Positions 6,838 through 9,799 of a stretch of DNA of 64,000 nt are shown piece after piece. The notes under the pieces are model-generated. The model was not told the DNA's origin. It ran no database searches and saw nothing but the letters and a program-made list of their open reading frames with translations. This DNA comes from an uncultured Gammaproteobacteria bacterium (lineage in GTDB: Bacteria; Pseudomonadota; Gammaproteobacteria; UBA9214), in assembly GCA_942491995.1 (NCBI GenBank), contig CALOCX010000003.1:139710-203709 (forward strand). The letters run 5' to 3'. The position numbers were made by a program, and so were the translations under genes. Numbering within the stretch: position 1 is the stretch's first letter; each line of letters begins with the position of its first letter.

Positions 6838-9799
6838 ATGCAAACCTTTCTTAAAGACCTGCTTTTAGGTGTTTTTCTTGTCTGCCTGACGCTGGCCTTC
6901 ACTACTTTCGTGAAGGCTGCCGACGTCGTTCCAACCGAGATCCAGATGCCCGGCACCCAGCCGAATGAAGTCGGCAACTTCGAATCACCGGACAAGTGCG
7001 ACAACTGTCATGCGGGCTATAATAACCTCGCACCGGAGCCGAGCCAGCCACCGGCTGGCGTGGCAGCATGCCATGGGCAATGCCGGACGCGACCCGATGT
7101 TCTGGGCAACGCTGGGTATTGCCGAGCAGGATTTTGATGGCTCTGGCGATCTCTGTATCCGCTGTCACAGCGCCGGCGGCTGGTACGGTGGACGCTCCAC
7201 CCCAACCGATGGCTCCGGCCTGGCTGCCTCTGATGACAACGGTATCGACTGCGATACCTGTCATGCCATGACCAATACTGACAATTCTGAACACCAGGGG
7301 GTGATGAACTCACCGCTTTATCGCCAACTGTCGATGAAATGTGCCGGACAAGTGTTCTACCACCGGTTCGAGGGTGAAGGTTTCTATGGCAGCGGCATGA
7401 CATCCCTGTGGAACGGCAGTGACAAGCTCGGTCCATATTCCGATGCTGCAGCCCGCCACCAGTTTATGCAGTCAGATTTCCACCGCAGTGTTGACTTCTG
7501 TGGCACCTGCCACGATGTCTCCAACTCGGCGGTCGGCGACCTGGCGCCCGGCAATGGTGCACAGACCGGCGCACCACACGTTGTTTCCAGCCAGGACTTC
7601 AACGGCGGCATAGCAAACCTGGGTGGTCCAGTAGAAGAAAAAGCGGCCTTCAATAATCCGCCCTATGCTTATGGCATCGTCGAGCGTACTTTCAGTGAAT
7701 ACAAGGCCAGCGCGTTCCCTACCACGCTGGTCTCAGAGTTCACCAGCCTGCCACCTGACCTGAAGGGCCGGTGGCTCTCTGGACGCCACCTACCAGGCGG
7801 CACTGCTCGCCGGTACCGGCGGTAATTACGAAGATGGACGACCCGCGTTACTTCAGCTGCCAGAGCTGTCATATGCGCCCTGTCGAGAGCAAAGGCTGCA
7901 ACAAGAACGGCGCGCCAACCCGCAAAGATATGCCGATGCATGACCAGACCGGCGGCAACTACTGGTTCGCCAATATGACCCAATACCAGGATAACGCAGG
8001 CACCTTACGCCTCGGCGGCGGCCTCAGCGGCAACCAGATCCTGGCGATGGATCTGGGCCAGCAGCGTGCAGTCAAACACCTGCAACAGGCTGGCGACCCT
8101 GCGGTCAATGGCAACACCCTGAAAGTCGTCAACCTGACCGGCCATAAGCTGATTACCGGTTACCCGGAAGGCCGACGCATGTGGCTCAATATCAAATGGT
8201 ATGAGCAACAATGCCCTGGTTCGCGAAGATGGCGCCTATGGTCCAATCGGTGTAAGATACCCGAATCCGGCCGGCGGCCCGGATGTCGAAGTCGAATCGA
8301 TCCTCGACCTGGATGATCCAAACACCAGGATCTACGAAGCGCATTACGCGATGACCAAGGAATGGGCGGATACCTTGCTGGCCGTTGGCAAACCCGCCGA
8401 CCTGCCATTGAGTTTCGATCGCACTACCGGCGCTGTTGACTTCACTTTGGGCGACCTGGCCGCACAACCTGCTGGCACTCACCATGAAACATTCCACTTT
8501 GTGCTGAATAACAAAGTGGTCAAGGACAATCGCATTCCACCTTATGGCATGAGCTATGACATTGCTAAAAACGTAATGCGCTGCCGGTACCTGCCAGAAC
8601 CAGTACGGCAACCCGGGGCCGGGCGGTACCTATGAATACTGGGATGAGATCGATCTCAATGCACTGAAACCTGCGAGTGCCGTCTATGCCGAGATCGACC
8701 TGCTCTACCAGGGCACCAGCTGGGAGTATATCCAGTTCCTCGACAAGGCAAACACAGGGCAGAATGCCTTCCTCGGTGAAGAAGGCACCAACATGCTCGA
8801 TGCCTGGATCAATGCAGAAGTACCTGTGGCGATGGAAGTGGCGGGTGACCGCAAGATGGTACCGCCGGTGGTGATGAAATCCACCACCTGGGGTACACCG
8901 CCAACAGGCAACAATGCACCAGCATGCACGATCGACAGCCCTGCTGGCAATACCAGCATCGATGAAGGCCAGTCAGTCAGTTATGCGGGCTCCGCCACGG
9001 ATAGTGACGGTACCATTGCCTCGTGGTCATGGACATTTGCTGGCGGCACACCTGGCAGCGCCTCCGTCGAAGAACCCAGCTGGTCATTCGACCTATACAC
9101 AGCTGGTGTTTACACCCACGACCGGATCACTGCCACCGATAACGGTGACAGTACTGCTACAAGGTCACGTCCTGGTACGGTTCAGATAACGGTCAACTGC
9201 GTGTCCGGCGTCAACAATGCCCCAGTGGCAAACGATGACAGCTACAGTGTCGATCAGGATACGGTGTTGAATATTGCAGCGTCCGGTGTACTCGGCAAGA
9301 CAGTGATGCCGATGGTGACTATCACTGCTGCAGTACAGTTATCCAGGGCTGCTAACGGTATCGCAACACTGTAACGGCAGACCAGGTCATCAGCTATACA
9401 CCGGTGAGCGGCCACGGTGGTACGACACAGGCTTCAGCGGTTAATATATTGCTGTCTCCGCTGCGGCCACAGGAATCATCACCGTCAACAGCGTTGGCCA
9501 GATGGCCTCGAGTGACATACACCGACAAAGGGGACTGTAACAATGATGCCAACTGTGAATGGCAGGGCAGTCCCAGGAATGGCTCCTGTGTCGATGTCGC
9601 TGCCTGCACTCCGACGGAAACACAGGAACTGTCATGCGCTGACGGCATCGACAATGACTGTGACGGTCTGGTCGACGGTGCCGATTCAGACTGCGGCATA
9701 CCCGCTGACTGTTCGCAATACGATGGCAACCCGGCAGCCTGCCAGAATGATCCGGTCTGTCGCTGGAACAAGAGGAACAATATCTGCCTGAACCGCTAA
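6838..9799 (+). pseudogene. Secreted multi-domain multiheme cytochrome c (at least 5 CxxCH) fused to PKD-like and cadherin-like domains and a Cys-rich C-terminal domain; at least 8 frameshifts (pseudogene or local sequence errors)
   Basis: Six consecutive same-strand ORFs in frames 1,2,1,2,3,2 (6838, 6965, 7771, 8201, 8793, 9404). Carry a signal peptide, heme motifs CDNCH, CIRCH, CDTCH, CGTCH and CQSCH, plus MHDQTGGNYW and KDNRIPPYG. Protein-like reading continues across frame switches near 7055, 7775, 7838, 8200, 8578, 9299, 9320 and 9370. Confidence 0.7.

Follow-up and report, generated by a model that had tools for sequence, protein, structure and literature searches.

The locus described here lies in a 64,000-nucleotide stretch of DNA from an uncultured Gammaproteobacteria bacterium (GTDB lineage UBA9214; GenBank assembly GCA_942491995.1, contig CALOCX010000003.1, positions 139,710 to 203,709 of the forward strand), hereafter the window, whose numbering is used for all positions. 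The gene under study, at 6838-9799 on the forward strand, was described in an initial annotation, made from the sequence alone, as a large sigma-54-driven gene for a secreted multiheme cytochrome, broken by at least eight frame switches and thus either a decaying pseudogene or a stretch of locally poor consensus. By frameshift-aware protein-to-DNA alignment to the intact homologous loci L007, L008 and L009, we find that 6838-9799 encodes one protein of about 985 codons whose reading frame changes at least 14 times, at about 7039, 7068, 7316, 7371, 7763, 7839, 8206, 8567, 8596, 9297, 9320, 9372, 9446 and 9517; the earlier switches were therefore real, and their number was too low. The forward-strand open reading frames (ORFs) lie in differing frames, all three of which are used (6838-7137, 6965-7825, 7771-8316, 8201-8635, 8793-9374 and 9404-9799), and in tblastn with intact homologues these pieces tile in sequence along a single protein. 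The L007 guide (1003 aa) places shifts at 7039, 7068, 7316, 7371, 7763, 7839, 8206, 8567, 8593, 9297, 9446 and 9523, and L008 and L009, which have the same C-terminal architecture as the window, refine those of the 3′ part to 9297, 9320, 9372, 9446 and 9517. The pieces, all from frameshift-aware alignments, and the features that accompany them are:

6838-7038 (frame 1), 7041-7067 (frame 0), 7070-7315 (frame 2), 7317-7370 (frame 0) and 7373-7762 (frame 2), forward strand: in-frame pieces of the 5′ part
7764-7838 (frame 0), 7840-8205 (frame 1), 8207-8566 (frame 2), 8569-8592 (frame 1) and 8595-9296 (frame 0), forward strand: in-frame pieces of the middle
9299-9319 (frame 2), 9321-9371 (frame 0), 9374-9445 (frame 2), 9448-9516 (frame 1) and 9518-9799 (frame 2), forward strand: in-frame pieces of the 3′ part
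6997 (CDNCH), 7154 (CIRCH), 7250 (CDTCH), 7499 (CGTCH) and 7858 (CQSCH), forward strand: five CxxCH heme-binding motifs, all kept, each in its local frame
9050-9520, forward strand: scrambled C-terminal module in which sequence of the L002/L008 type (PKD, cadherin-like) alternates with sequence of the L001/L132 type (fn3, PASTA)
9525-10350, forward strand: end of the gene, terminators and the beginning of ccmA; identity to L001 (long-read) and L132 (Illumina) is mostly 99-100%, falling to 89-96% over about 9800-10050, with no frame changes

Two junctions had been put in the right place but read as single shifts. Near 7055 the frame shifts twice, on either side of EPATGWRGS in frame 0, and near 8578 it again shifts twice, on either side of KRNALPVP in frame 1, where AAGTCQNQYG had wrongly been read; four shifts, at 7316, 7371, 9446 and 9517, had been overlooked, the first two of them forming a pair. 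The indels measure 1-2 nt (one is of 7 nt), are of both signs, often come in pairs with several lying only 2-30 nt apart, and stand in non-repeat contexts, which disposes of the homopolymer cause once suggested. At each site, the indel that separates the window from one intact allele also separates it from all the others. The corrected frames are nearly, if not wholly, free of stops as had been stated: one ambiguous TGA at 7335 falls inside the short frame-0 patch 7317-7370, which probably holds two further indels.

Regulatory and maturation elements surround the gene:

4721-6109, reverse strand: divergent, intact gene for a sigma-54 enhancer-binding activator of 462 aa with PAS, AAA+ Sigma54_activat and HTH_8 domains (Pfam; Sigma54_activat E = 3.9e-62)
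6129-6462, forward strand: regulatory copy 1, with TGTCA/TGACA repeats, a sigma-54 -24/-12 element at 6288-6303 and a 31-aa signal-peptide-like ORF at 6367-6462
6609-6837, forward strand: regulatory copy 2, the working promoter region, with upstream repeats at 6609-6697 and the sigma-54 -24/-12 element TGGCATTGTTCTTGC at 6767-6781
9873-9936, forward strand: two tandem intrinsic-terminator-like hairpins after the gene
10199-17453, forward strand: intact ccmABCDEFGHI cytochrome c maturation operon, from ORFs and the Pfam labels of syntenic L001 genes, with ccmF and ccmC of exact length against cluster mates

The -24/-12 element TGGCATTGTTCTTGC is perfect and stands 57 nt before the ATG, occurring also at 6288-6302, and this motif also lies shortly upstream of the cytochrome gene in about 19 related loci. 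The TGTCA/TGACA palindromes at 6129-6210 and 6609-6697 are candidate activator sites. With both a promoter and a cognate activator in place, the cytochrome gene is, as judged from sequence, sigma-54-dependent, and the intact promoter and ccm operon reported initially were both recovered. The activator gene is syntenic in L001, L002 and L006, and L088 has an oppositely oriented 460-codon ORF in the corresponding upstream location, identified by position only.

The regulatory region itself forms a tandem duplication whose period is about 475 nt (68-75% identity between 6129-6462 and 6609-6895), the direct repeats D1-D4 being spaced about 475 nt from copy 2. Within the duplicated unit are the TGTCA/TGACA repeats, the sigma-54 promoter and the ribosome-binding site, as well as the first ~20 codons. 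The sigma-54 element of copy 1 is an exact pattern match (TGGCATTGTTCTTGCT); this copy stands before only the 31-aa ORF at 6367-6462 (MLTLIKDLLIAIFLVGITLVWVASTHATTLY), after which come a hairpin and a T-run near 6525-6560. L001, L002 and L132 share this arrangement: the first two have the stub among their called ORFs, and L132 likewise has two sigma-54 motifs. The stub may be what is left of a tandem gene copy that was lost, or it may encode a small peptide under sigma-54 control.

The damage is local, as had been proposed. All frame changes fall between 7039 and 9517, and none occurs in the adjoining stretches 6600-6975 (91-99% identical to L002) and 9525-10350 (mostly 99-100% identical to L001/L132). 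L001 and L002 are syntenic loci from ENA assemblies with flanks 95-97% identical to the window, and in a conservative three-way count with them 3 indels unique to the window fall in 13 kb of flanks, apparently noncoding by position, against 10 in the gene (at least 14 when guided by protein), a contrast with a Fisher p of 2e-8. Ten other window genes, together about 16 kb, have the exact length of their cluster mates at ≥90% identity, many of these mates coming from JGI/IMG metagenome contigs; frame-breaking indels thus number at least 14 in the 2.96-kb gene versus none in ~16 kb of neighboring genes. What lies at the gene is a local, indel-dominated cluster of frame changes, at a place for which the collections searched hold no near-identical population sequence.

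The substitutions in the same gene are those of a gene under selection. Its dN/dS is 0.08 against L002 and 0.044 against L007, and the changes on the window's own lineage comprise 60 synonymous and 31 non-synonymous ones, distributed 17:11:63 over the three codon positions, which departs from neutrality at p = 3e-12. Window-specific non-synonymous changes are concentrated within 6 codons of the frame changes (13 of the 31 versus 16% expected, p = 5e-4); even so, dN/dS near the lesions is 0.09, meaning that differences there are still mainly synonymous. Mutation-accumulation studies put the natural ratio of indels to substitutions at about 1:10. Fourteen indels should therefore be accompanied by some 100 or more neutral substitutions and several stops, and at most one ambiguous stop is seen. 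With dN/dS of 0.04-0.08, a strong third-position bias and no more than that one stop, the gene lacks the relaxed selection of a decaying pseudogene.

In the comparison with orthologs that the initial annotation had called for, the relatives are mostly intact and none carries the window's lesions. Sixty of 65 untruncated GTDB loci are intact, as are 78 of 80 metagenome loci over a 514-aa core, and full-length proteins dominate the database. L002, at 91% nucleotide identity, has 11 frameshifts of its own in the cytochrome gene, all +1 insertions and none the same mutation as in the window; its flanking genes bear about 2 indels per kb with the same signature, which marks it as a noisy contig. 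Three to four of the L002 shifts lie within ~15 nt of window shifts as different mutations, where ~1.5 coincidences are expected by chance, and this is not significant. L001 has one frameshift, whereas on the Illumina contig L132, whose allele is of the L001 type (96.6% identical), the gene is a single unbroken ORF of 1001 codons. The sharing of lesions with close relatives that would mark a pseudogene was thus not found: intact alleles lack the window's indels, and those of L002 are different. In the collections searched, no short-read assembly is near-identical to the 5′ 2 kb of the window gene; the closest are L088 (83% nucleotide identity, intact) and L132 (L001-type, intact).

Lesions that look genuine occur here and there in the family. 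A distant homologue at L004 662-2883 and L005 508-2729 (JGI Ga0210124_1000001 and Ga0055481_10007499) is split into 335+258+130 aa by three single-base indels, two of them deletions and one an insertion in a GGG run. The broken 335-aa product is identical on five contigs, and the full three-ORF split is the same in L004 and L005, which come from different JGI samples, so that this homologue looks like a genuine pseudogene or a population-fixed variant. At L003 4930-4950 (JGI Ga0452208_085107), a 5-bp tandem duplication, CAGAA-CAGAA, sits inside the conserved motif GYPEGRR|MWLN and looks like a real mutation rather than a sequencing-type error. Single nonsense codons occur in L050 (TAG) and L015 (TGA). 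The real-looking lesions in family members number one to three each, not 14.

The gene also changes its affinity along its length. From 6600 to 8900 it is closest to L002, with 91-99% identity between lesions and 40-80% at the lesions, where other alleles match best. From 9050 to 9520, its pieces reach only about 45-80% identity to either cassette type, in conflicting frames, as blastn and painting with 75-nt pieces agree. Alignment guided by L001 recovers QYCYKVTSWYG (9147-9193, frame 2) and TVTADQVISYTPVSG / TQASAVN (9354-9470), alignment guided by L008 and L009 recovers PKD and cadherin pieces in other frames of the same stretch, and the fn3-type QYCYKVTSWYG in frame 2 overlaps a PKD-like end in frame 0. 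The PKD and cadherin matches reported initially are present, yet 9050-9520 is a patchwork of two cassette types, and the module stays broken even in a conceptual repair.

This stretch is variable among strains as well. The dS between the window and L002 is 0.39-0.49 in the gene, versus flanks that are ~3% diverged, and strains with flanks 95-99% identical and the same pentaheme core carry different C-terminal modules. In the regions compared (window 8900-9799, L001 11034-12770, L002 11500-12500 and L007 3600-4610), L001 has fn3 and PASTA, the window and L009 have PKD and cadherin-like domains (as do L002 and L008 by alignment), and L007 has two cadherin-like domains. The affinity of the flanks shifts along the contig too, 4132-6200 being closer to L002 and 10191-12893 closer to L001. 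By these alignments, the cytochrome locus is a strain-level hypervariable island and a hot spot of allelic replacement.

We consider, with a probability of roughly 75%, that the frameshifts arose from a failed long-read consensus where co-existing strains carry divergent alleles. The damage is local and of indel-only character, it leaves the signature of selection in place, its lesions are absent from relatives, and it lies in a gene of mosaic structure. An artefact is favored because the substitutions are selected, the indels are paired and stand outside repeats, the lesions are unshared, the locus is hypervariable and the haplotype switches inside the gene. The source assembly is very probably a long-read metagenome-assembled genome (MAG), although the platform is one that we infer: L001 and L002 are Flye-style contigs of ENA assemblies, and the contig names of relatives, together with 'MFD...bin' MAGs among the GTDB matches, fit the naming of the Microflora Danica long-read project. 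The pipeline of that project consists of nanopore-only Flye assembly with one round of Medaka (PMC12313526), and indels in nanopore consensus sequences increase at low coverage (PMC9262707).

The proposed course of events is as follows. Co-existing strains would carry strongly diverged alleles of the cytochrome gene, including non-homologous C-terminal cassettes, between flanks that are 95-99% identical. Reads from several strains would agree in the flanks, giving a clean consensus there, and disagree inside the gene, where the backbone may have been left poorly polished or been polished with mis-registered reads of other alleles. The outcome would be small indels together with a consensus that hops between haplotypes. 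In the organism, the gene is most likely one intact ORF under sigma-54 control, encoding a pentaheme cytochrome that is exported by Sec, matured by Ccm and equipped with Ig-like modules at its C-terminus.

Several points weigh against a failed consensus. The platform and the read-level mechanism are our own deductions. The rest of the contig is very clean, so polishing generally worked and a special local cause is required. A few family members (L050, L015, L003 and L004/L005) have lesions that look genuine. Finally, the shift sites show no significant preference for positions that vary within the family (permutation p = 0.10), in a test that is biased by the placement of shifts in the alignment and hence uninformative; the same test in L002 gave p = 2e-4. 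A collapsed paralog, another of the causes first suggested, finds no counterpart in the window: self-BLAST returned only the promoter duplication and no tandem repeat in the gene, and there is no similarity either to the PKD/cadherin gene upstream in L002.

Between the two possibilities first put forward, the selection record and the unshared lesions thus favor poor consensus over a decaying pseudogene. A genuine and very recently inactivated pseudogene, in which the need for the cytochrome was lost and a burst of small indels followed, perhaps after illegitimate recombination between allele types had scrambled the C-terminal module, is the best of the alternatives, and we consider it unlikely. 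The lesions stand in the deposited sequence and are confined to one gene, real lesions occur occasionally elsewhere in the family, a half-domain architecture at 9050-9520 would be non-functional and leave later indels neutral, and the promoter duplication and 31-aa stub show that the locus has a history of rearrangement. A pseudogene is nonetheless hard to reconcile with own-lineage substitutions that are those of a selected gene with at most one stop codon, or with a ratio of indels to substitutions that is close to 1 or higher, well away from natural spectra. Large deletions are absent, the indels tend to sit in pairs separated by only a few nt, the lesions recur in none of the relatives, and the promoter, activator, terminators and ccm operon are untouched.

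A related account, to which we give somewhat less credence still, is that the damage is genuine and belongs to a recombination-prone, hypervariable cassette gene for a surface-exposed pentaheme cytochrome, in which non-homologous exchange of C-terminal cassettes (PKD/cadherin-type and fn3/PASTA-type) was followed by a burst of indels. If this were true, the locus would record natural shuffling of allele cassettes gone wrong, and a mutational process in which indels greatly outpace substitutions.

A mixture of causes, with a natural recombinant mosaic allele (5′ L002-like, 3′ L001-like) in which only some of the frame changes are consensus errors, seems quite improbable. The change of flank affinity from L002 (4132-6200) to L001 (10191-12893) would fit a recombining population, and the mainly synonymous differences near the lesions (dN/dS 0.09) look like real allelic sequence, not noise. 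Natural homologous recombination, however, makes no frame errors at its junctions, and the alternating low-identity patches of non-homologous cassettes are unlike a clean crossover; as regards the frameshifts themselves, this account overlaps with that of a failed consensus.

That the gene is decoded despite its frame changes, through programmed ribosomal frameshifting, transcript slippage or editing, would suit the protein-like continuity across all junctions and the intact regulatory signals, but on present sequence evidence is effectively excluded by at least 14 shifts in both directions with no slippery or repeat context and no conserved site, by homologues, close alleles included, that are single ORFs throughout, and by the sporadic in-frame stops of other members, with no conserved UGA. 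Two candidates of this kind were tried and rejected. A family-wide recurrent frameshift or recoding site was suggested by a first search, which returned only matches of 139-419 aa, several with out-of-frame tails at the same region, and the genome and metagenome loci proved intact; match length in the protein search never went beyond about 1.5-1.75 times the query (240 aa giving up to 419, 359 up to 622 and 804 up to 1225), so that a fragment used as query mimics family-wide truncation. Selenocysteine was set aside as well, the in-frame stops in L015, L050, L117 and L135 being at different positions and of different codons. An Rfam scan of the window gave no matches.

The product, once repaired, is predicted to carry a Sec-type signal peptide and five CxxCH motifs, together with a long conserved core, matches to PKD and cadherin-like domains, and a Cys-rich, acidic tail. 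The N-terminus, MQTFLKDLLLGVFLVCLTLAFTTFVKA followed by ADVV, shows the expected n-, h- and c-regions by eye and is conserved in the aligned homologues. The HMM comparison proposed at the outset returned both the PKD and the cadherin-like matches and, with the five CxxCH motifs and the putative Sec-type N-terminus, supports the original description of a secreted multiheme cytochrome. Its sequence makes the gene a member of a large, unnamed family of secreted pentaheme c-type cytochromes, comprising 411 loci in GTDB species representatives (some of them isolates of Shewanella, Desulforhopalus, Parahaliea and Halieaceae), 200 metagenome loci and more than 3,400 database proteins from many phyla. 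Full-length members have 750-1050 aa, with a five-heme core of ~670 aa and swappable C-terminal Ig-like modules, which across the family are of the PKD, cadherin-like, fn3, PASTA and TSP3 types; the five CxxCH motifs are invariant in 40 full-length homologues. Source databases name members only 'cytochrome c family protein', 'multiheme c-type cytochrome' or 'hypothetical', and a literature search by the domain features of the family found nothing on it. Weak Pfam matches to Mtrc-MtrF_II-IV_dom and Cytochrome_C7 occur in the family, and some homologues bear PEP-CTERM or MYXO-CTERM surface-sorting tags.

Intact members include L007 (a 1003-aa ORF on MAG contig JABDRN010000054.1), L088 (a 1007-codon ORF on JGI contig Ga0316198_10001753) and P0360 ('cytochrome c family protein' of Shewanella sp., 804 aa). 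They have in common with the window copy a predicted signal peptide, the same placement of the five CxxCH motifs and the conserved motifs GIVERTFSEYK, NLTGHKLI(S/T)GYPEGRRMWLN, DNRIPPYG and TSWEYIQFL, and their cores are 85-94% identical in blocks to the repaired window protein; members of the gammaproteobacterial clade share the upstream sigma-54 motif too. They differ in being single ORFs, whereas the window copy has at least 14 frame changes, and the C-terminal modules vary by allele.

Comparison with known systems offers some guidance on function. A structure model, whose heme-rich part is of low confidence (pLDDT <50 for residues 95-284), gives a fold match to the penta-heme cytochrome c552 of Thermochromatium tepidum (PDB 5ZE8). 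This match is suggestive only: 5ZE8 has 385 aa as against a family core of ~670 aa plus Ig-like modules, and no sequence or profile similarity between the family and 5ZE8 is detectable. MccSep (GSU2937-2936) of Geobacter sulfurreducens is a pentaheme selenoprotein polysulfide reductase whose structure is set beside 5ZE8 in an extended-data figure (bioRxiv 10.1101/2025.11.18.688581). It resembles the present family in being periplasmic or secreted and in having five hemes and a C-terminal Ig-like domain; it differs in size and extra domains, and its defining features are a conserved Sec/Cys and a second Cys that acts as distal ligand of heme 2. Among 40 homologues we found no invariant Cys outside the five CxxCH motifs, and there is no conserved in-frame UGA in the family. 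The outer-surface decaheme cytochromes MtrC and OmcA are likewise secreted multiheme c-type proteins, although the window's family has five hemes rather than ten and a low heme density, and none of the six loci with gene tables has a porin or periplasmic partner gene beside the cytochrome gene.

Our best guess is that the protein is secreted and works as a pentaheme redox enzyme or as an electron carrier, its Ig-like modules binding surfaces or substrates. The extracellular electron-transfer role first proposed is speculation, since a redox enzyme or carrier is suggested just as much by five hemes in ~670 residues and by the fold match to penta-heme cytochrome c552.

The remainder of the window holds further full-length genes, identified from the names of cluster members that are exact or near-identical: a P-type cation ATPase (35314-37992, reverse strand), the diaphorase (38429-40237) and large subunit (41583-43073) of an NAD-reducing [NiFe] hydrogenase, and subunits B (59917-61308) and A (61298-63085) of a V/A-type ATPase. 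An intergenic, REP-like palindromic element of ~70 nt (GTAGGAGCGCCGTCCCCGGCGCGAT...ATCGCGCCGGGGACGGCGCTCCTGC) occurs at 17483-17553, 29614-29683 (inverted), 4002-4054 and 4132-4197, with tandem partial copies near 4000-4200, and is present in L001 and L002 too.

The closest known parallel to the damage is the truncation of genes by consensus indels in long-read assemblies, the problem addressed by the IDEEL test, with which it shares its domination by indels, intact short-read relatives and a dependence on coverage and microdiversity (PMC9262707, PMC12313526). Unlike the usual errors of this type, those in the window all fall in a single 2.7-kb stretch, the rest of the 64 kb being clean, and are not associated with homopolymers. 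If the frameshifts are indeed an artefact, then a long-read MAG contig that is otherwise very clean can contain 3 kb with ~5 indels per kb precisely where strains differ most. Such stretches would be mis-annotated as pseudogenes, and the most variable and ecologically interesting genes would be lost from catalogues. More interesting than the frameshifts themselves is their by-product, a pentaheme family with swappable Ig-like modules, which has no name and no solved structure, and whose conserved five-heme core has a distant fold match to cytochrome c552.

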